From an uncultured Candidatus Saccharibacteria bacterium (GTDB taxonomy: Bacteria; Patescibacteriota; Saccharimonadia; Saccharimonadales; UBA10212), in contig CAZETJ010000002.1 of NCBI GenBank assembly GCA_964514575.1, forward strand, positions 1,391 through 65,390: a stretch of DNA of 64,000 nt, in the 5' to 3' direction. Under the pieces are notes generated by a model. The model was not told the origin of the DNA and did no database searches. It saw only the letters and a list, made by a program, of their open reading frames with translations. The translations under genes and the position numbers were made by a program. This document shows positions 4,489-53,049 of the stretch, piece by piece. Each line of letters opens with the position of its first letter. Position 1 is the stretch's first letter.

Positions 4489-4830
4489 ATGGATTTTGAC
4501 GAGTATCAAAAAAAAGCCATTACGACTGATGTCTACGGTGGCAAGGGCGACATCCAATCAATCGCATTTTTAAATAAAGTTTTAGGCTTGGTCGGCGAGA
4601 CTGGCGAGGTGGCCGAGAAAGTCAAAAAGCTGCAGCGCAATCAGGCTGGTGAAATGAGTAAATCTGACAGGCAGGAGCTGCTCAAGGAGTTGGGCGATGT
4701 ACTTTGGTATTTGAGTGCATTAACTTTCTATCTCGGCGAATCGCTAGACAAGCTTGCTCAAAGCAACCTAAACAAACTTTTCGATCGTAAATCACGAGGC
4801 GTTATCAAATCCCAGGGCGACAACCGTTAA
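4489..4830 (+). CDS. MazG-like nucleotide pyrophosphohydrolase
   Basis: 113 aa. GLVGETGEVAEKVKK...ELGDVLWYL matches the EExxE/ExxD MazG helix motifs. Confidence 0.8.
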   Translation: MDFDEYQKKAITTDVYGGKGDIQSIAFLNKVLGLVGETGEVAEKVKKLQRNQAGEMSKSDRQELLKELGDVLWYLSALTFYLGESLDKLAQSNLNKLFDRKSRGVIKSQGDNR

Positions 4831-4850
4831 GTTTTATAAAAGTTGTGTGT

Positions 4851-4881
4851 GCCACCGGCCGGGAGTGTCCCGGCCGGTGGC
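4851..4881 (-). terminator. Perfect 14-bp GC-rich hairpin (GCCACCGGCCGGGA gtg TCCCGGCCGGTGGC)
   Basis: Lies 13 nt after the stop of the minus-strand high-GC ORF. Followed on that strand by ACACACAACTTTTATAAAAC. Confidence 0.8.
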
Positions 4882-4894
4882 TGTTGGCCGTCCG

Positions 4895-5473
4895 TCAGGT
4901 GAGCTTGATCGAGCTGAAGAACTTCGTGGCGAAGGCCGGCTTGGTCTTGCGTGGACCGGGGTAGTAGCCGGCGTGGATGTAGTAGACCTCGCCCCGGTGC
5001 CAGACCGTGTATCCGATGTAGCCGTACAGGTCGTTGAACTTCGCGGCCAGGTTGCCGTCGAACGTAGTTCGCGTCGGGTTCGTGACGCCGCCGTTGATGG
5101 CGGTTAGCGCCTGCCACGGATCCGAGTACTTGCTCTTGAACACGTCGATCGCATAGAACTCCTGCTGGCACCCGGAGGCGATTACTGCCTCGCACGGTTT
5201 GCCAGTCTTGACGTTGCGACCAACACCGGAGCTCCAGTCATCGGACTTCCTGGTCGCCGAAGTCGCGCCGTCGAAGACGCTGTGCCCGTAGCTGAACTTC
5301 ATTCCGGTGATGTACGGGAAGTCAGCGCAGAAGTGCGCCGTGCTGATGCAGTGGTGATGCCACGTCACTTGAGGTGACATGCTGTTCTTGAAGTTCGCGC
5401 TGGAGCTCGTCGCTGCGCTGATGAGCGCGATGACGGTCGCCAGGCAGGCAAACAAGCAGATGCGGCGGAGCAT
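4895..5473 (-). CDS. Secreted cysteine-containing protein, 192 aa, on high-GC island 1
   Basis: GGAGGGAG SD 5 nt before the ATG. Signal peptide MLRRICLFACLATVIALISAATSSSA. Strong G/C preference at third codon positions, unlike neighbouring genes. Family not recognised. Confidence 0.75.
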   Translation of the reverse strand: MLRRICLFACLATVIALISAATSSSANFKNSMSPQVTWHHHCISTAHFCADFPYITGMKFSYGHSVFDGATSATRKSDDWSSGVGRNVKTGKPCEAVIASGCQQEFYAIDVFKSKYSDPWQALTAINGGVTNPTRTTFDGNLAAKFNDLYGYIGYTVWHRGEVYYIHAGYYPGPRKTKPAFATKFFSSIKLT

Positions 5474-5581
5474 GTGACTCCCTCCCTCGGGGATAGTAGG
5501 TGCGAGTTTTCTGACGGAAAACCATTCCGAGCCGAAACTCGGTTGCGATATTATAACACTAAAGCTTATGTACGTCTATGC

Positions 5582-10460: not shown

Positions 10461-10658
10461 ATGGCTTATAAGCACACTAACAGTAAAGGTGTTACCTATT
10501 ACCTAAACGCCAAGGCAGTTACGCTGCGCGGCGGCAAGACACAAACGATTTACTACTTTTCTAAGGACGAGCGAGCCGACACTGGCGTAGATTTGCCAGA
10601 CGACCGCGTTGTCAACGAAAATCCGCGCAACGGTTTCTTGACCCTCAAGCGCAAGTAA
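10461..10658 (+). CDS. Small basic hypothetical protein, 65 aa
   Basis: GGAGAGAGGG SD, followed by a terminator. Confidence 0.55.
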   Translation: MAYKHTNSKGVTYYLNAKAVTLRGGKTQTIYYFSKDERADTGVDLPDDRVVNENPRNGFLTLKRK

Positions 10659-10681
10659 TTTCGATTTAAGACAAATAAGAG

Positions 10682-10711
10682 TACCCGCTCAGCTTTTGGG
10701 CGGGTATTTTT
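10682..10711 (+). terminator. Rho-independent terminator TACCCGC ... GCGGGTA TTTTT
   Basis: 7-bp GC stem plus a T5 run directly after the 65-aa ORF. Confidence 0.7.
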
Positions 10712-10746
10712 ATGACCAAAAATGCCTAGTGTATAGTGGAAAGAGT

Positions 10747-11508
10747 ATGTCCGTAATCCTGGAGGTCGACAACCTGCAGAAGTCTTATGGAGGCCGCAAG
10801 GTCGTCAAGGGTATTAGCTTTGACGTCGCTCAAGGCGAGGTTTTCGGAATCCTCGGCCCCAACGGCGCTGGCAAAACCACTACCCTGGAAATGATTGAGA
10901 CCCTGCGCGAGATTGACGGCGGCCATGCTCGTATCAACGGTATCGACGTGGAAAAACAGCCTCAGAAAATTCGCTATATGATTGGCGTCCAGACCCAATC
11001 GACGGCGTTCATGGATAAGGTCAAGTTGACGGAACTGCTGGAGCAGCAGGCCGCCGCTTACGGCGAGCGGGTTGATACACACGAGCTTTTGAGGGACGTC
11101 AATCTGGACGATAAGGCCGATTCATATATAGAGAACTTAAGCGGCGGCCAAAAACAACGTTTCTCGATCGCCGCCGCGCTAGTCCACAACCCAACGGTAT
11201 TCTTCATGGATGAGCCCACGACCGGGCTTGACCCTAAGGCCCGGCGCAACTTGTGGGAGCTGGTTCAGAAAATTAACCAAAAAGGTAAGGGCACGACCAT
11301 CATTTTGACGACCCATTATATGGAAGAGGCCGAAGTGCTATGCGATCGCGTGGCAATCATGGACGAAGGCAAAATCGTAGCCATGGATACGCCGGCCGAC
11401 TTGGTCCAAAAGCTGCTCAAGAAGGGTTTCAAAAAGGCGCGCAAAGTTGAACAAGCCAATCTTGAGGATGTTTTCTTGAATCTGACAGGCAAGGAGCTCG
11501 GCCGATGA
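10747..11508 (+). CDS. ABC transporter ATP-binding protein (ABC-2/DrrA-like)
   Basis: GPNGAGKTT, LSGGQKQRF, FFMDEPTTGLD. Start trimmed to MSVILEV. Confidence 0.93.
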   Translation: MSVILEVDNLQKSYGGRKVVKGISFDVAQGEVFGILGPNGAGKTTTLEMIETLREIDGGHARINGIDVEKQPQKIRYMIGVQTQSTAFMDKVKLTELLEQQAAAYGERVDTHELLRDVNLDDKADSYIENLSGGQKQRFSIAAALVHNPTVFFMDEPTTGLDPKARRNLWELVQKINQKGKGTTIILTTHYMEEAEVLCDRVAIMDEGKIVAMDTPADLVQKLLKKGFKKARKVEQANLEDVFLNLTGKELGR

Positions 11509-12737
11509 AAATCTTCTGGGTTGTTGTACTGGTTTTGGTTATTGCGCGCATTGGCTGGCGTATCTCACGCCTGGTTCGCAAAAATCAGCCAAAGGCTCAA
11601 CCCGCCAGACCTAAGTCCAATAAAGATTTGAGCCAGCACCAACGCAATCTATTTACCATTTGGGTTTTTGCCAAAATTAGCGTTAAGCGCTACTTCCGCG
11701 ATCGGCTGGCCCTGTTCTTCACGGTAGCTTTTCCACTGATATTCCTCTTGGTCTTTGGCAGTCTTAGCAAAGGTAGCGGCGTAACTTTTCATGTCGGCTT
11801 AATCAATCAAGGGGGCAGCGCCTTCTCCCAGAAATTTATTAATGAAATTAACACTAACAAATCCTTCAATGTGGACAAGACCGTTACTAGCCTAGCAACC
11901 GCCAAGGATAAAATGAGCAAAAGTGAAATTGATGCGACTATTGTTTTGCCATCGGATTTCGGTGCTGTTAAAGACAATTTGCCGGCCGGCCAGGCACAGA
12001 TTTATTTCGACGAAAACAACGTCCAGGCCGCGCAGACTATTAGCTCGGTGGTTCAGGGGCAGCTTGATGGCGTCAACACTCAGCTGATAAAAGTTAAACC
12101 GCCGTTTAGCGTCAAAAATGTCTCGACCAATACCGGCGGATTATCTAAGTTAGACTACACTGTTTCGGGGTTGCTCGGCTTCTCAATAATTGGCCTCGGT
12201 ATCTTCGGCCCGGTTAATTATTTCCCGGAGATGAAAAAGCAGGGGGTCTTGCGGCGCCTGCACATCACGCCGCTGAGAGTCTGGCAGTTCTTTGTGTCCA
12301 GTGTTATATCTAACGCTATCATCGGATTGTTCTCGATCGGTATCATGATCGGCGTGGCCGCCGCGCTATTCCATTTCAAAATGGTGGGCAATTACTTTGA
12401 ATTAGCGACCTTTATCACATTGGGCATTTTATGTATTTTTGGCATAGGACTGGCGATCGGCGGCTGGGCTCGCAATGAGCGCCAAGCTGCGCCGCTGGCC
12501 AACGTAATTGTTTTTCCGATGATGTTTTTATCTGGTACTTTCTTTCCACGCTATGCGATGCCGGAATGGCTGCAGCACGTCAGTGCTTACTTACCCCTGA
12601 CTCCAGTAATCGACGGCATCAGAATGATCGCGACCGAGGGCAAGCATCTAACGCAGATTGGTCCACAGCTGGGCTGGGTGGCAATCTGGACAATTATTAT
12701 TTATGCCATCGCGTTCCGCGTTTTCCGCTGGGAATAA
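11505..12737 (+). CDS. ABC-2 type transporter permease
   Basis: ATGA overlap with the ATPase. N-terminal TM, large loop and six C-terminal TM segments. Confidence 0.8.
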   Translation: MKIFWVVVLVLVIARIGWRISRLVRKNQPKAQPARPKSNKDLSQHQRNLFTIWVFAKISVKRYFRDRLALFFTVAFPLIFLLVFGSLSKGSGVTFHVGLINQGGSAFSQKFINEINTNKSFNVDKTVTSLATAKDKMSKSEIDATIVLPSDFGAVKDNLPAGQAQIYFDENNVQAAQTISSVVQGQLDGVNTQLIKVKPPFSVKNVSTNTGGLSKLDYTVSGLLGFSIIGLGIFGPVNYFPEMKKQGVLRRLHITPLRVWQFFVSSVISNAIIGLFSIGIMIGVAAALFHFKMVGNYFELATFITLGILCIFGIGLAIGGWARNERQAAPLANVIVFPMMFLSGTFFPRYAMPEWLQHVSAYLPLTPVIDGIRMIATEGKHLTQIGPQLGWVAIWTIIIYAIAFRVFRWE

Positions 12738-12740
12738 AAC

Positions 12741-12772
12741 TTTTACCACTTTGTTCCGGCAAAGTGGTAAAA
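12741..12772. terminator. Hairpin TTTTACCACTTTG ttccgg CAAAGTGGTAAAA
   Basis: 13-bp stem directly after the permease stop. T/A runs make it usable in both directions. Confidence 0.7.
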
Positions 12773-12799
12773 ACCTCTCGAGCCGATTCAAACTCTAGA

Positions 12800-12935
12800 T
12801 GGTCGTTCGGTCTTCAGACAAAAGTGAACCTGCGGGACTTCTCGCTGACGCTCGTCGGAGAACACAAAAACCAATACTTAACTAGTCAAGTAATTTATAA
12901 GAGTATGAAAAAGCGCCTAGGCGCTGCGTAGGTTA
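12800..12935 (+). repeat. Segment X: decayed sequence paralogous to 52185-52355
   Basis: Colinear blocks: caaaa..gaacc..tgcgg..tcgct.gcgctc, then act.a.tagtcaag.a.t, then tgaaaag. The conceptual C-termini are also similar (YLTSQVIYKSMKKRLGAA versus GLISQALSSIEKKPRLC). Confidence 0.35.
12873..12895. repeat. Motif family copy 3, AATACTTAACTAGTCAAGTAATT (imperfect)
   Basis: Read directly. Intergenic, next to high-GC island 2. Confidence 0.8.
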
Positions 12936-12958
12936 AAAACCTCGCGCGCCTCAAGGCG
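12908..12958 (-). terminator. Two tandem GC hairpins with T-runs on the minus strand (AGCGCCTAGGCGCT-TTTTT and GCGCCTTGAGGCGC..GGTTTTT)
   Basis: Downstream of the minus-strand three-gene high-GC operon. Confidence 0.6.
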
Positions 12959-13013
12959 CTGTGCCTGGGTGAGAGCTAGGCTCAACCAATCCCAGGACTT
13001 CTGCTTTGTACAA

Positions 13014-13256
13014 CTAGTCGGCTTCACTCATCACGAACCCCACCTCGGCGAGCCAGATGACGAAAGCGACGAGACCGAAACAGAAAACGACGGAGTTGTT
13101 GGAGAGGAGCAAGAAAAAGCTGAGCCAGCCGATGAAGAAGTACAGAATCGGCAGCTCCTCGAGAACCTCACCCACCAGGCTTCGAAATGGGTGATCGTAC
13201 TTCCACCTCTCTTGTTCGTAGTCGGCCTTCCGTTGTTCGTACGAACGAATGATCAC
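13014..13256 (-). CDS. Small membrane protein, 80 aa (high-GC island 2, gene 3)
   Basis: GTG start preceded by GAAAGGGG. Hydrophobic core LPILYFFIGWLSFFLLL...FCFGLVAFVIWLA. Corresponds to the C-terminal part of track ORF 13014..13466. Confidence 0.6.
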   Translation of the reverse strand: MIIRSYEQRKADYEQERWKYDHPFRSLVGEVLEELPILYFFIGWLSFFLLLSNNSVVFCFGLVAFVIWLAEVGFVMSEAD

Positions 13257-13270
13257 GCTACCCCTTTCGG

Positions 13271-13471
13271 TCAGTACGGCTCGGGGAATATGAGGCGCTC
13301 GATCGCCCAGAAGAAAGCGGCGATCAACACGCCGACGATGAGTGTGCACCAGCCGACCCAGAAGGTTCCGGTCGAGTTGCTGACGTTGTAGGCCGAGCAC
13401 ACCATTGCTGCCAAAGCGCACCACACCATGGCGGCGCAGGCTCCAGCTGCGGCGGCTACGATCCACCTCAT
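13271..13471 (-). CDS. Small 2-TM membrane protein, 66 aa (island 2, gene 2)
   Basis: The ATG overlaps the upstream stop (ATGA). Sequence MRWIVAAAAGACAAMVWCALAAMVCSAY...WCTLIVGVLIAAFFWAI. Confidence 0.6.
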   Translation of the reverse strand: MRWIVAAAAGACAAMVWCALAAMVCSAYNVSNSTGTFWVGWCTLIVGVLIAAFFWAIERLIFPEPY

Positions 13472-13665
13472 GTCATGCTCCTTTTTCGGCCTTGGTTGCG
13501 GCCTGAGCGCCATACGGCGAAGATCATGCCCCAGATGGCGCCCGGTAAGCCCGCTTCGAATGCTGTCCACGCATCGTGGCCGTCGCCTAGAACGACTAGA
13601 ACTGCCGTTGGTATGAGCATCAATACCAACCACGTGTAGGCGAACCACTCCCATCTCTTGTCCAT
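13468..13665 (-). CDS. Small 2-TM membrane protein, 65 aa (island 2, gene 1)
   Basis: GGGAGA SD 5 nt before the ATG. Sequence MDKRWEWFAYTWLVLMLIPTAVLVVLG...AIWGMIFAVW. Confidence 0.6.
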   Translation of the reverse strand: MDKRWEWFAYTWLVLMLIPTAVLVVLGDGHDAWTAFEAGLPGAIWGMIFAVWRSGRNQGRKRSMT

Positions 13666-13824
13666 GTTTTCTCCCGGTCTAAAAGAACTAATGCTGACTG
13701 GAGCCGAAGCTCGACAGCCAAAATCATAAAGCAAATTCTACAATAAACAGGGGTAAATAGCAATCAAAAAATGACAAAAGCAGGGTTCTAAAAGCTGGGG
13801 CATGTCGCTTATACTATTTAGCAG

Positions 13825-15411
13825 ATGGAGAAGTGGTTAAGCAGGGCGAACCGGCGCATTTCACTGCCTAGCGCGGCGGCGCTCTTGATTGCCGCTTCGC
13901 TGATCGGTCTAATCCTTGGTTTTGTGCGGACCCAAATCATCAACGGTAGTTTTAATTACGGTACAAATGTCGCTACCGACCCGTATTTTGCCGCTTTTAA
14001 AATTCCGGATTTCTTCTTCTACACCATAGCTGCCGGTGCGCTTGGCGTGGCTTTCATGCCTTTTCTGATGGATCGTCTACAAAAAGGCGATCGTAAAACC
14101 GTCTGGCACCTAACATCCAGCCTGCTCAACCTGCTCAGCGCCCTAATGGTCATCGTTGGGTTCGCACTATTGTTATTTCCCGGCTTCTTTATCCGTATCG
14201 TAATTGGCCACAACCTAGGCCCGCACGAGACGCACCAAGCCATCGTGATTATGCGTTTGATCGCTTTTAACCCGCTGTTATTTACCATCTCCGGTATTTT
14301 AAGCGCGCTTCAGCAAACTTTCGGCCGATTCTTTTTCTATGCTCTGGCGCCAATCCTTTATAACGGCTCGATTATTGCCAGCGCCTATATATTTAGGGGA
14401 CACATAGGTCTGATTGGTTTGGGCATTGGTGCTCTTTGCGGCGCCATCTTGCAGCTACTATTCGTACTACTTGGCCTCGTGGGCATGGGCTATCGCTGGA
14501 CGCCGGTTATCGCGTGGCGTAGCACCGAATTCAAACAAATCCTACGCAACCTGCCGCCGCGATCAATCGACCAAGGCATTGACTCCATCAACTCGATTGT
14601 CGAGACTAATCGTGCTAGTACGCTGCCCAGCGGCTCGATTACCTTCTATGAGAACGCCTATACGTTGCACTTAGCGCCGATATTGCTGATCGGTACGACG
14701 ATTGCCACAGCGGCTTTTCCACGCCTTAACGAGCGGCTCAGCCAAGGCCGGCCGGATCTATTCCGGCGCGACTTTTTGAGGGTTTTTAGAGCAATTTTCT
14801 GGATTATCTTGCCGATGGCGGTCATTACATTCTTTGCCCGAGCGTATTTAGCACGTTTGATTTATAAATCGCCAGAACCAACAATTGCCTTAGTTTTGGG
14901 CTTCTTGGTCGGGGCGGTCATTTTCCGAACGCTCTATGCTATCATTAGCCGATATTTTTATGCCCAAAAAGATACCCGGACACCGCTTTACGTCTCGCTG
15001 TTCACAATCGCCCTAAACATTTATCTAGCGTTTACTTTGTCGCACATTTACGGAATTGTCGGCCTGGCGGTGGCTCAATCGATTGTAGCCACGGTCGAGG
15101 TATTTATACTGTTAGGCATCATGGTTTGGCGTGATCATAATCTATTTACTCCAGAATTCTGGAGTGACGTTACTCGCAGTATGTCTGTTACTGGCTTTAC
15201 GGTCGTAACCTGCTATACCATGGTCAAGCTAGTGCCGCTTTATGCCGCTGACAAAGGTTTTATAACCCTAGGCAGCAAACTGGTGTTTATCGTAATTCCA
15301 ACGCTGGCGGTGCATGTCGCGATATCATGGTTGTTCGCCCTGGAAGAAGTCCAGCCGGTAATAGAGAAACTTCGTAAATTGATCTTTCGCCCCGTCCGCG
15401 CTATAGAATAA
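13825..15411 (+). CDS. murJ: Lipid II flippase MurJ/MviN
   Basis: 528 aa, about 14 TM segments. N-terminal LILGFVRTQIINGSF..FKIPDFFF pattern of MviN. Confidence 0.8.
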   Translation: MEKWLSRANRRISLPSAAALLIAASLIGLILGFVRTQIINGSFNYGTNVATDPYFAAFKIPDFFFYTIAAGALGVAFMPFLMDRLQKGDRKTVWHLTSSLLNLLSALMVIVGFALLLFPGFFIRIVIGHNLGPHETHQAIVIMRLIAFNPLLFTISGILSALQQTFGRFFFYALAPILYNGSIIASAYIFRGHIGLIGLGIGALCGAILQLLFVLLGLVGMGYRWTPVIAWRSTEFKQILRNLPPRSIDQGIDSINSIVETNRASTLPSGSITFYENAYTLHLAPILLIGTTIATAAFPRLNERLSQGRPDLFRRDFLRVFRAIFWIILPMAVITFFARAYLARLIYKSPEPTIALVLGFLVGAVIFRTLYAIISRYFYAQKDTRTPLYVSLFTIALNIYLAFTLSHIYGIVGLAVAQSIVATVEVFILLGIMVWRDHNLFTPEFWSDVTRSMSVTGFTVVTCYTMVKLVPLYAADKGFITLGSKLVFIVIPTLAVHVAISWLFALEEVQPVIEKLRKLIFRPVRAIE

Positions 15412-25714: not shown

Positions 25715-26816
25715 AAGGGATTACTACGAAGTACTTGGTGTTTCTAAGAACGCCAGCCCGGACGAGATTAAAAAGGCTTATCGGCAGCTAGCTGTCCAAC
25801 ACCACCCAGACCGCGGTGGCGATGAAGCTAAGTTCAAAGAAGTCAGCGAAGCCTACGAAGTCTTAAACGACCCCAGCAAGCGCCAACGCTACGACCAGTT
25901 CGGCCATGCCGGCGTTGGCACCAGTGCCGCCAGCGGCGGCAACCCATTTAGCGGCTTCGGTGGTTTCTCTGGCGCCGAGAACATCAACTTTGACTTCGGC
26001 GACCTGGGCCTGGGCGATATTTTTGGCAGTTTCTTTGGCGGTGATATGGGCGGGGCGCGTAACCGGCGCGGCAACCGCGGCCGAGACGTCGAAACCGATA
26101 TAGAAATTTCATTTGAACAAGCAGTTTTTGGCACTGAAGTCGAGCTTAAGCTCAACATGGAAGACGTTTGTGAGCACTGCAAAGGAACGACCGCCGAGCC
26201 TGGCTACGAGCTCAAAACCTGTCCGAACTGTAATGGCTCCGGCCAAGTAACCAACGAAATGCGGACCGTTTTTGGCAATATTCGCCAGAGCGCTACTTGT
26301 CCGCAGTGCAAAGGCCGGGGCAAGATTGCCGAAAAACCATGCAGCGTCTGCCATGGAAAGGGCACTCATCGTAAGGATCGCATGGTAACGCTTAAAATCC
26401 CGGCCGGCATTGACGATGGCGCGACTATCCGCTTGCGTGAGCATGGCGAAGCCACAGCCGGCGGCCATCAGGGTGATCTCTATGTAAACATCCGAGTCCG
26501 GCCGCACAAAAAATTCACTCGTGAGGGAGAGCTGATTTTATCAACCGAGCATATCAGTATGGTCGAAGCTGCCCTTGGCACCGAAATTGACGTCGAAACC
26601 GTCGACGGTAAGGTTCGCATGAAAATACCTGCCGGTACCCAGAGCGGAACCGACTTTAAATTATCCGGCCACGGCGTGACACACCTTAATAAATCTAGCC
26701 GCGGCGCGCATATTGTTACAGTAGTTGTCGACACGCCAATCAAACTGTCGACTAGTCAAAAGGGACTACTCGAAGAACTGCGCCATAGCGAAGGCCGTCG
26801 CGGAATTTTCAACTAA
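25707..26816 (+). CDS. dnaJ: Co-chaperone DnaJ
   Basis: GTG start with a GGAGG SD. J domain with HPD, a G/F-rich region and four CxxCxGxG zinc motifs. Confidence 0.97.
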
Positions 26817-32747: not shown

Positions 32748-32773
32748 AATGGGCGGTCCGGAGACCGCCCATT
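32748..32773 (-). terminator. Perfect hairpin AATGGGCGGTC cgga GACCGCCCATT
   Basis: Lies 2 nt after the minus-strand high-GC ORF stop. Followed on the minus strand by TTTCTTTTATT. Confidence 0.8.
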
Positions 32774-32775
32774 CC

Positions 32776-33264
32776 TCACTTGCCCCGGTCGAGATAGCTG
32801 TAGGTGCTGATCGTGTTGGAGGGGTATCCCTCCACGAAGGCCTCGGCCTGGACCTCGAAGATCCACGAGTCATCGACCCCGGAAGAAGGACCCGGGGGCG
32901 TCAGGACGTCGTAACGAATCTTCGGGATCGTCTGCCATGCCTGGAGCGTGTAGTGCAACGTGCGCACATTCCACGGTCCGTTCGACGAGCTCGAATCCCA
33001 GGACGTGAACTCCACGGTGACGTGCTGGACCTGCGCAGAGCGTGAGCTCAGTGAGAACAGATAGGTCATGTGGCCGTTCCAGACGTAGTACGACGCCGGC
33101 GAGAAGTTCGCATTCCAGCCAAGGACGGCTGGCTGCGGGTAGTGCGCGTCCGCTGGTGCGGCCTTGGCAATCGCTGCGAGAGCGAGTGCTCCGAGGCAGA
33201 AGACGAAGATCACGCAGCCCAGCGCAAAGATACGCTTGGGCCCTTGCGGGATAATCCTAGACAC
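32776..33264 (-). CDS. Secreted protein, about 162 aa, on high-GC island 3
   Basis: GTG start with AAAGGA 7 nt upstream. Signal peptide ...FALGCVIFVFCLGALALAAIAKAAPADA. Strong G/C third positions. Family not recognised. Confidence 0.7.
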   Translation of the reverse strand: MSRIIPQGPKRIFALGCVIFVFCLGALALAAIAKAAPADAHYPQPAVLGWNANFSPASYYVWNGHMTYLFSLSSRSAQVQHVTVEFTSWDSSSSNGPWNVRTLHYTLQAWQTIPKIRYDVLTPPGPSSGVDDSWIFEVQAEAFVEGYPSNTISTYSYLDRGK

Positions 33265-33403
33265 GGAAGTGTCCTTTCGACGGGGGAATGATAGCAAATG
33301 AGGTGCTCCGGCGAGGGAGCGGGCCACAAAAGTGGCGCATCACCCCACAGGATTCGAATATTTTAGCATAAACGTTATAAAAAAGCAACTCCCAGGCTGT
33401 GTT

Positions 33404-52435: not shown

Positions 52436-52930
52436 ATGTTTGCAATGGTCGACTATGACGCGTTGCAGAGAATCGTGCGCTTAACGCACGCCGACCCGCT
52501 GACACAGGCGATCGCCATGTTCATCCTCGGCGGAAAGACCGGCGATCGTCGAGATGCCGTGCTCGATGCAGCTATGACGGGGCTCACCTCAGACGACGTA
52601 CGCACCATGTTCGGCGACAGGGTCAGGATGGAGCTCCTGCTCAACAAGGATCTTGATCGCCTAGAGGACGACGACCCATGCCAATGGGCTCGCCTGATCA
52701 AGGCCGATGGGCGCGGAAACCCGCATGACAGCGCGTTCTACCAGCTGTCGCCGTTCAGGGGGAAGCGCATTGCCTTCTTCACCTACGGAGACCAGGTCGA
52801 CGTGCTTCTTCGTGGCTCGGTGTACAACGGGGACCTCCCTGGCACGGATTTCCTCCTGGTCATCGACGCGAACGCGCCCTTCAAGGACGCGGAGGTGCAC
52901 TCCCTGAGCCAGCTTTCCGCCGTCGAGTAG
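52436..52930 (+). CDS. Cytoplasmic protein, 164 aa, on high-GC island 4
   Basis: GGAAAGGTGG SD. No signal peptide. Strong G/C third positions. Family not recognised. Confidence 0.7.
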   Translation: MFAMVDYDALQRIVRLTHADPLTQAIAMFILGGKTGDRRDAVLDAAMTGLTSDDVRTMFGDRVRMELLLNKDLDRLEDDDPCQWARLIKADGRGNPHDSAFYQLSPFRGKRIAFFTYGDQVDVLLRGSVYNGDLPGTDFLLVIDANAPFKDAEVHSLSQLSAVE

Positions 52931-52956
52931 TACACGGATCCACTAGTTCGCACATT

Positions 52957-52987
52957 GCGGGAGCGACGACAACTTCGTCGCTCCCGC
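52957..52987 (+). terminator. Perfect hairpin GCGGGAGCGACGA caact TCGTCGCTCCCGC
   Basis: 13-bp stem followed by CTCAACACTTTATAAAC. Confidence 0.75.
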
Positions 52988-53049
52988 CTCAACACTTTAT
53001 AAACGTAAGCACTTGCTTTAGCGATTTATCAGGATAATAATTCAGAAAA

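Follow-up and report, generated by a model that had tools for sequence, protein, structure and literature searches.

The question raised by this locus is what is encoded by a GC-rich islet of about 0.9 kb that separates an ABC-2 permease gene from murJ on a contig of a Saccharimonadales (Saccharibacteria) chromosome, and how the islet came to be there. The contig is CAZETJ010000002.1 of assembly GCA_964514575.1, and the window analyzed is the whole 64,000-nucleotide stretch at its positions 1,391 to 65,390, from whose first letter all coordinates are counted. A sequence-only reading had described five long, overlapping open reading frames (ORFs) in the islet, of 150, 127, 88, 140 and 62 aa, all of which are present, and had proposed that they hide a minus-strand operon of three genes for membrane proteins of 65, 66 and 80 aa (genes 1, 2 and 3). 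The three-gene model was borne out by rereading of the sequence, by the GC content at third codon positions (GC3), by shuffling, and by a homologue of gene 3. Overall, the islet holds a genuine operon for orphan small membrane proteins that was gained by horizontal transfer. Its GC content (0.55 to 0.63, versus a window mean of 0.494 with a standard deviation of 0.043) peaks at 0.62 to 0.63 in windows of 200 to 300 nt, in agreement with the GC-rich island that had been noted. The structural and evolutionary description given below is, in our judgment, highly probable.

The three genes are closely packed, and translation signals accompany each of them, as the sequence-only reading had in large part recognized. 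The ATG of gene 1 lies 4 nt downstream of the Shine-Dalgarno (SD) site GGGAGA (13675 to 13670), and its TGA stop (13470 to 13468) overlaps the ATG of gene 2 (13471 to 13469) as ATGA, an arrangement of translational coupling. Gene 2 also has a strong, near-ideal SD site of its own, AAGGAG at 13483 to 13478, 6 nt upstream of its start, which had been overlooked. For its part, gene 3 starts with GTG 14 nt past the stop of gene 2, with GAAAGGGG at 13268 to 13261 as its SD site.

Codon composition singled out the same frames. GC3 was highest in exactly the three proposed frames (0.68, 0.82 and 0.75 for genes 1, 2 and 3, respectively; host genes, ∼0.57), and in the gene 2 region it reached 0.82, versus 0.49 and 0.58 for the other frames. 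When this region is read in the frame of the 150-aa ORF, GC is highest at codon position 1 (0.83) and not at position 3. The N-terminal extensions that distinguish the 150-aa and 127-aa ORFs contain 20 to 24% arginine and no hydrophobic segment, the value for the additional 70 residues of the 150-aa ORF being 24%. In that ORF, the arginine richness of the extension and the position 1 peak are typical of off-frame reading.

To measure how often such a pattern arises by chance, 1,000 dinucleotide-preserving shuffles of 13014 to 13665 were examined for ORFs of at least 60 aa. Only 6% of these ORFs contained one segment resembling a membrane helix, and 0.13% contained two. None of the 1,000 shuffles gave three same-strand ORFs with such segments.

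For gene 3, there was also comparative evidence, in the form of one homologue among about 15 billion proteins. When the three products were concatenated and run with HMMER against the full set of 1.84 billion representative proteins, they yielded one non-self match, to gene 3 (P0017; E = 3.6e-23). P0017 is an 80-aa protein, 58 to 59% identical to that of gene 3, that starts at the aligned residue and whose upstream frame is closed; these features rule out the 150-aa ORF. The sequence-only reading had allowed that homology might favor one of the long alternative-frame ORFs, and the sole homologue of gene 3, with its 80 aa, speaks against the 150-aa one. The values for nonsynonymous and synonymous differences between the two genes (pN, 0.25; pS, 0.78, saturated) and the identities by codon position (0.70, 0.72 and 0.46) mark gene 3, as judged from this comparison, as a real gene under purifying selection and a member of a very rare conserved family. 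Public gene calls are divided: models of 65 plus 150 aa appear on long contigs only, and 65, 66 and 80 aa are called on short ones. Gene 1 is called at 65 aa on 23 public contigs and gene 2 at 66 aa on six short contigs. On these signals, the three proposed frames are the predicted coding frames. The coordinates of all features are collected in Table 1.

Table 1. Features of the islet and its surroundings (window coordinates)
Feature	Position	Strand	Description
Whole islet	12895-13785	-	∼890 bp, ends approximate; terminators, three cistrons, 5'UTR and candidate promoter
Gene 1	13468-13665	-	65 aa; ATG at 13665
Gene 2	13271-13471	-	66 aa; stop 13273-13271
Gene 3	13014-13256	-	80 aa; GTG at 13256; stop TAG 13016-13014
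Candidate sigma-70-like promoter	13735-13763	-	TTGCTA-N17-TAGAAT; 9/12 consensus matches
Putative 5' untranslated region (5'UTR)	13666-13728	-	GAGC-UUCG-GCUC hairpin and GGGAGA SD site (13675-13670)
Compound terminator	12907-12996	-	Hairpins 12996-12964, 12959-12946 and 12925-12912
Alternative ORF, 150 aa	13014-13466	-	
Alternative ORF, 127 aa	13271-13654	-	
Alternative ORF, 88 aa	13468-13734	-	Begins at TTG 13734
Alternative ORF, 140 aa	12969-13391	+	
Alternative ORF, 62 aa	13428-13616	+	
Left landmark, resident DNA	12874-12894	not assigned (.)	Copy of lineage palindrome TACTTAAC-NN-GTTAAGTA, found 3' of the ABC-2 permease gene in relatives
Right landmark, resident DNA	13786-13815	+	Putative MurJ promoter; -10 TATACT at 13810-13815 kept in relatives
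ABC-2 permease gene	11505-12737	+	Flanks the islet; convergent to it
murJ	13825-15411	+	Flanks the islet; divergent from it

The islet is foreign, horizontally acquired and lineage specific, a conclusion based on its deviating GC and GC3 values, the broken synteny and its absence from relatives. The relatives of the adjacent MurJ all belong to metagenome-assembled genomes of Saccharibacteria/Saccharimonadales, with identities of up to 76%. The ABC-2 permease gene and murJ are adjacent in 15 relatives, separated by an AT-rich spacer of 48 to 269 bp, versus 1,088 bp in the window. A presence/absence survey in relatives, suggested together with the sequence-only reading, covered 80 related loci, and genes for the three proteins were absent from all of them. 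No donor of the islet was identifiable.

The distribution of the islet among strains points to recent movement. Twenty-one public contigs from related samples carry it, with no differences across 12654 to 13730 except for one single-nucleotide polymorphism (SNP) at 13349. The flanking haplotypes, on the other hand, differ from the window by 17 to 25%, mostly at third codon positions. Diverged flanks were found in the ABC ATPase region (10500 to 11450; contigs L001, L005, L007 and L009) and in murJ, from 13983 in L006, L011 and L012 and from 13828 in L096; L006 is also diverged beyond 16100. In most haplotypes, the invariant block extends over about 11450 to 13827 and includes the ABC-2 permease gene as well as the islet, and in L012 the permease gene contains differences as far as 12653, with the islet remaining identical. 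The break points recur among independent assemblies. This is most simply explained if the islet is younger than the divergence of the strains and was transferred from one background to another by homologous recombination, with a coassembly artifact as a possible alternative. A mosaic with an identical islet block suggests recombination or a gene-specific sweep, and an identical islet amid flanks diverged by about 20% suggests recent gene-specific spread in the Saccharibacteria population. Given this spread, the islet may have an effect, useful or selfish, at the episymbiont's membrane.

The gene 3 homologue also revealed a second cassette. P0017 is encoded on a contig of 1,849 bp (L094, from a Logan assembly of SRR30970427), where it is the third gene of a cassette (950 to 1582) after ORFs of 72 and 63 aa, the second of which it overlaps as ATGA. 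The GC content of this cassette is 0.57 (peak, 0.61), versus 0.48 for its flanks (range, 0.44 to 0.50). Both family members have 80 aa, share the core HPFR-x-L-x-GE-x-LEELPILYFF-x-GWLSFFLL, and are encoded by the final gene in a GC-rich cassette of three; the family has two members, and its defining features are accordingly provisional. The partner proteins in L094 are soluble. The 63-aa product is acidic, and the 72-aa product appears ribbon-helix-helix-like by eye, with no hidden Markov model (HMM) backing that assignment. A relationship of these partners to genes 1 and 2 was considered and rejected, since the L094 partner proteins showed no similarity to the islet in any frame; neither did the partners match anything in PADLOC, Pfam or NCBIfam, and Rfam found nothing in L094. 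The cassette lies 3' of a 255-aa ORF lacking any Pfam, phage or other match. What is conserved would be the 80-aa protein, encoded in the terminal position of a GC-rich cassette of three small genes with exchangeable partners.

As for the proteins themselves, hydropathy indicated for the gene 1 product one strong membrane helix (residues 7 to 30), a weaker second one (33 to 52) and a basic C-terminal tail, RSGRNQGRKRSMT. The gene 2 product has two hydrophobic helices, the first rich in alanine, glycine and cysteine, which could be a signal-peptide-like or signal-anchor-release (SAR)-like segment, and an acidic or neutral tail. That of gene 3 has about 35 aa of charged N-terminal helices followed by a two-helix membrane hairpin and an acidic tail. 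The proteins are rich in tryptophan, which flanks the helices. The earlier claim of hydrophobic helices in each protein is thus sound for genes 2 and 3, with two strong helices each, and holds in part for gene 1, in which the second is weak. An AlphaFold2 model of the gene 3 product contained four helices (mean predicted local distance difference test score, 74.8); a Foldseek search with it of the PDB and BFVD gave nothing at an E value of ≤0.001, and generic helical hairpins only. Paralogy was rejected, the three proteins being unrelated to each other and without paralogues in the window. Word searches with each of them in 5.8 billion proteins returned self matches only. Genes 1 and 2 had no relatives in the HMMER scan or in viral, metagenome, phage or plasmid collections, and back-translated pattern scans of viral and metagenome contigs, for gene 3 and for genes 1 and 2, gave no relatives.

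Putative signals for independent transcription surround the genes. The promoter-like site TTGCTA-N17-TAGAAT of the sequence-only reading exists in the sequence, at 13763 to 13735 and not at 13745 to 13717, a displacement of 18 nt. Transcripts from this candidate would begin near 13728, past the TTG that opens the 88-aa ORF. A structured 5'UTR was rejected as a candidate feature, its fold being no better than those of shuffles (z = -0.4) and lacking an Rfam match. At the other end, the tandem GC hairpins with T-runs that had been described were confirmed and extended: there are three hairpins, with T-runs after the last two, the second being followed by GCGAGG and a T-run at 12939 to 12935 and the third by TTTTT (12911 to 12907). 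The minimum free energy of the region 12880 to 13030 (-55 kcal/mol) was better than those of 200 of 200 shuffles (z = -3.7).

Taken together, the islet is probably a self-contained minus-strand unit of three small membrane protein genes that was acquired and that may serve as a membrane module of accessory role. In such a scheme, a foreign unit of about 0.9 kb would have entered between the terminator of the ABC-2 permease gene and the murJ promoter. Its own promoter-like site would drive three tightly packed cistrons, and the stacked intrinsic terminator would end the transcript. The three products are predicted to form small helical hairpins in the cytoplasmic membrane and may work jointly there as one small module. 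Its conserved membrane core, or its effector, would be the product of gene 3, with genes 1 and 2 as exchangeable, lineage-specific partners, because in L094 the gene 3 homologue is again last, with unrelated soluble partners. The likeliest role would be an accessory membrane function, such as toxin/immunity, addiction or exclusion, a phage lysis cassette being ranked as less likely. A self-sufficient toxin/immunity, addiction or exclusion type role at the membrane is put forward tentatively, as a possibility well short of an even chance. A wider proposal, that the gene 3 family marks an undescribed class of GC-rich three-gene mini-cassettes, is speculative and unlikely to hold in full. Such cassettes would lack mobility genes of their own, carry interchangeable partners (membrane proteins here; soluble, possibly DNA-binding ones in L094), enter Saccharibacteria-like genomes and sweep through strains by homologous recombination, as a new membrane toxin/immunity, phage exclusion or host interaction module of an episymbiont.

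Several observations weigh against this interpretation. Genes 1 and 2 have no homologues, and since no relatives were found, their coding status rests on intrinsic signals, namely, GC3, composition and hydropathy, the shuffle test and the translation signals. Moreover, gene 1 passes the hydropathy test with one strong segment only, its helix at 33 to 52 being weakly hydrophobic. In a 660-bp contig (L101), the SNP at 13349 is a G-to-A change that turns Trp41 (TGG) of gene 2 into a TGA stop; in the frame of the 150-aa ORF, it is a missense change, Val40 to Met. Gene 2 may be dispensable or have a rare null allele, or the change may be an assembly error; being a single observation, it is a minor caveat. 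One promoter-like site was found, versus 1.1 expected in shuffles, so that a match by itself is weak evidence. The islet lacks mobility genes and a clear target-site duplication. Finally, the joint action or interaction of the three proteins is our inference, and the functional proposal draws on one comparison locus of 1.8 kb, L094.

Among the alternatives, the one that survives best, rather unlikely as it is, holds that the genes were real in the donor and that the islet is recent, functionless passenger DNA, invariant only through its youth. The zero polymorphism indeed gives no sign that selection acts in the population, gene 2 has a nonsense variant, the genes are orphans, and acquired islands are common in Patescibacteria (PMC12455944). 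Persistence of one clone, however, would not place the same islet in several haplotypes with flanks diverged by 17 to 25%, which indicates spread by recombination, and the three frames, SD sites and terminators are all intact. The streamlined genomes of Saccharibacteria, in addition, usually shed useless DNA.

Improbable, too, is a holin-like or lysis cassette, for example, a prophage relic in which gene 1 and/or gene 2 would be a holin of the class II or pinholin type. The sequence-only reading had been reminded of phage lysis cassettes or small membrane toxins, and this likeness did not extend beyond architecture: there are 65 to 80 aa per protein, two hydrophobic helices in each, a highly basic tail in gene 1, a first helix in gene 2 that is rich in alanine, glycine and cysteine like the SAR domains of pinholins, and the islet is foreign DNA. 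An architecture of at least one helix and a charged tail is compatible with the proteins without being specific, and the basic tail occurs in gene 1 only. The profile searches against holin and small-toxin families that had been recommended gave nothing above threshold for the three proteins in Pfam, PHROGs, PADLOC or NCBIfam, and no holin family matched in Pfam or PHROGs at E values of up to 10. The best PHROG matches were to a spanin (E = 0.67) and to a family without assigned function, phrog_1248 (E = 0.011), the latter rejected as hydrophobic noise that the homologue P0017 did not reproduce. Gene 1 matched DUF6611 (PF20315) with residues 2 to 65 on profile positions 44 to 109 of 168 (E = 0.0017); membership was rejected, the scores of 18.8 bits, or 19.6 with the 88-aa extension, lying below the curated gathering cutoff of 27, and the match was judged compositional. 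It covers only the hydrophobic middle of the 168-position model, and the HMMER scan had found no relative of gene 1. Sequence searches of the PDB gave no match. Neither did blastn and tblastn searches of phage and plasmid collections (50,697 phage records and 72,556 plasmids) and of viral contigs. No endolysin, integrase or other phage gene adjoins the islet, whose neighbors encode the ABC-2 permease and MurJ. A free-standing promoter and perfect conservation across strains fit a lethal, unregulated holin poorly.

It is very improbable that the small proteins belong, as accessory subunits or modulators, to the ABC-2 transporter or the MurJ flippase. Although small membrane proteins often modulate transporters and the islet sits between both genes, in most haplotypes within an invariant block that also spans the permease gene, it is convergent to the one and divergent from the other, with its own candidate promoter and terminator. 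Fifteen relatives retain the ABC-2-MurJ pair without it, in L012 the islet is identical beside a permease gene that differs up to 12653, and no transporter adjoins the homologue of gene 3 in L094. The public gene-caller model, with a 65-aa gene, a 150-aa gene (13466 to 13014) and no real gene 2, is hardly credible, for although Prodigal-type calls on long contigs give it, the 150-aa frame is open and the lone SNP of L101 is missense in that frame and nonsense in that of gene 2, the protein homologous to its C-terminal 80 aa has a length of 80 aa and is preceded by a closed frame, its N-terminal 70 aa are arginine rich (24%) and without a hydrophobic segment, its GC peak is on the wrong codon position (position 1, 0.83), gene 2 has AAGGAG at ideal spacing plus the ATGA coupling, and across the 1.84 billion representatives gene 3 has no N-terminal extension except in the call for its own locus.

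The preferred reading, an acquired operon of three small membrane protein genes, has consequences for annotation. The locus is a clean case of systematic error, in which standard callers, faced with a GC-rich insert, join a true 80-aa gene to off-frame sequence to give 150 aa, hiding a 66-aa gene. Public databases hold the wrong 65-plus-150 model for it, and the corrected model is given here. A very rare small-protein family has also been defined, consisting of gene 3 and one homologue, each of which closes a GC-rich cassette of three genes. As it stands, the islet is one more orphan accessory operon in a group of bacteria, the Patescibacteria, in which horizontally acquired islands of this sort are common (PMC12455944).

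The limits of the insert were set at about 12895 and 13785 because the palindrome at 12874 to 12894 and the -10 sequence of murJ are landmarks common to the spacers of relatives. Conservation of the latter was judged by eye across the spacers of 16 relatives, and the putative MurJ promoter failed the consensus promoter scan. No integrase or transposase ORF was found, and the search for target-site duplications or inverted repeats at the islet ends returned nothing convincing, only short repeats at chance level. A direct repeat, TAAAAACCTC.CG.GCC, matches at 15 of 17 positions between 12768 to 12784 and 12934 to 12950; it lies within the left flank and not at both islet ends. Between the stop of the ABC-2 permease gene and the palindrome, about 135 nt (12738 to 12873) are absent from most relatives, and this stretch holds a hairpin with a perfect 13-bp stem (12741 to 12772) and no Rfam match. 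At the same junction, one relative (L043, 2877 to 5998) carries a different insert of 3.1 kb with several unrelated ORFs; the junction may be an insertion hot spot.

The 18-bp palindrome itself occurs in the window in eight copies with at most two mismatches, versus none expected (positions 111, 7750, 12875, 36909, 51505, 51555, 54962 and 63718), and also in many related loci (for example, L016 at 5937, L023 at 5872, L056 at 5923 and L057 at 5918). It is often bordered by A-runs and T-runs and lies mostly directly 3' of genes across Saccharimonadales genomes. We read it as either a bidirectional, terminator-like element common to the lineage or a site bound by a protein, and we know of no description of it. 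Other short stretches with GC contents above 0.60 are found at 4800 to 5500, 32750 to 33350 and 52450 to 53000, plus a single 300-nt window starting at 25801. The first three each overlap one plausible ORF, of 192 aa (4895 to 5473, minus strand), 183 aa (32776 to 33327, minus strand) and 164 aa (52436 to 52930, plus strand), respectively, the first two with N-terminal hydrophobic segments, and each is also covered by arginine-rich off-frame ORFs. The genome of the window seems to hold several small foreign inserts.

Three kinds of known systems can be compared with the islet. Class II holins and pinholins, such as S21-68 of phage 21 and Gp4 of mycobacteriophage Ms6, resemble it in size (65 to 80 aa), in their two transmembrane helices and in their tightly packed, coupled genes; the basic C-terminal tail of gene 1 and the weakly hydrophobic, alanine- and glycine-rich, SAR-like first helix of gene 2 also recall them. 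Unlike these, the islet proteins show no sequence or profile similarity to any of the holin families searched, have no adjacent endolysin or phage context and no dual-start motif, and are encoded in a chromosomal intergenic spacer with a free-standing candidate promoter.

Small membrane toxins, namely, the type I toxins of the Hok/Gef, Fst and TisB types, and the two-helix membrane effector domains of defense systems form the second group. Like the islet, they involve small hydrophobic proteins on horizontally moving cassettes. The islet proteins differ from type I toxins in being longer and having two helices, and from small-toxin and defense modules in general in lacking a PADLOC, Pfam or NCBIfam match, an antisense RNA (Rfam found no RNA and no antisense element in 12650 to 13900) and a sensor or enzymatic partner. 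A cognate antitoxin was looked for, and the two upstream genes of the islet both encode membrane proteins. In L094, where the first gene product appears ribbon-helix-helix-like by eye, the order of soluble proteins followed by the gene 3 homologue resembles that of antitoxin and toxin in toxin-antitoxin modules.

The third comparison is with genomic islands, of which orphan small membrane proteins are a common cargo. The islet departs from the islands of Patescibacteria (PMC12455944) in being very small (0.9 kb), in having no integrase or mobility gene and in carrying only three orphan small membrane proteins. It shares with them the atypical GC content, the interrupted synteny, the absence from relatives and a cargo without known function (PMC12455944).

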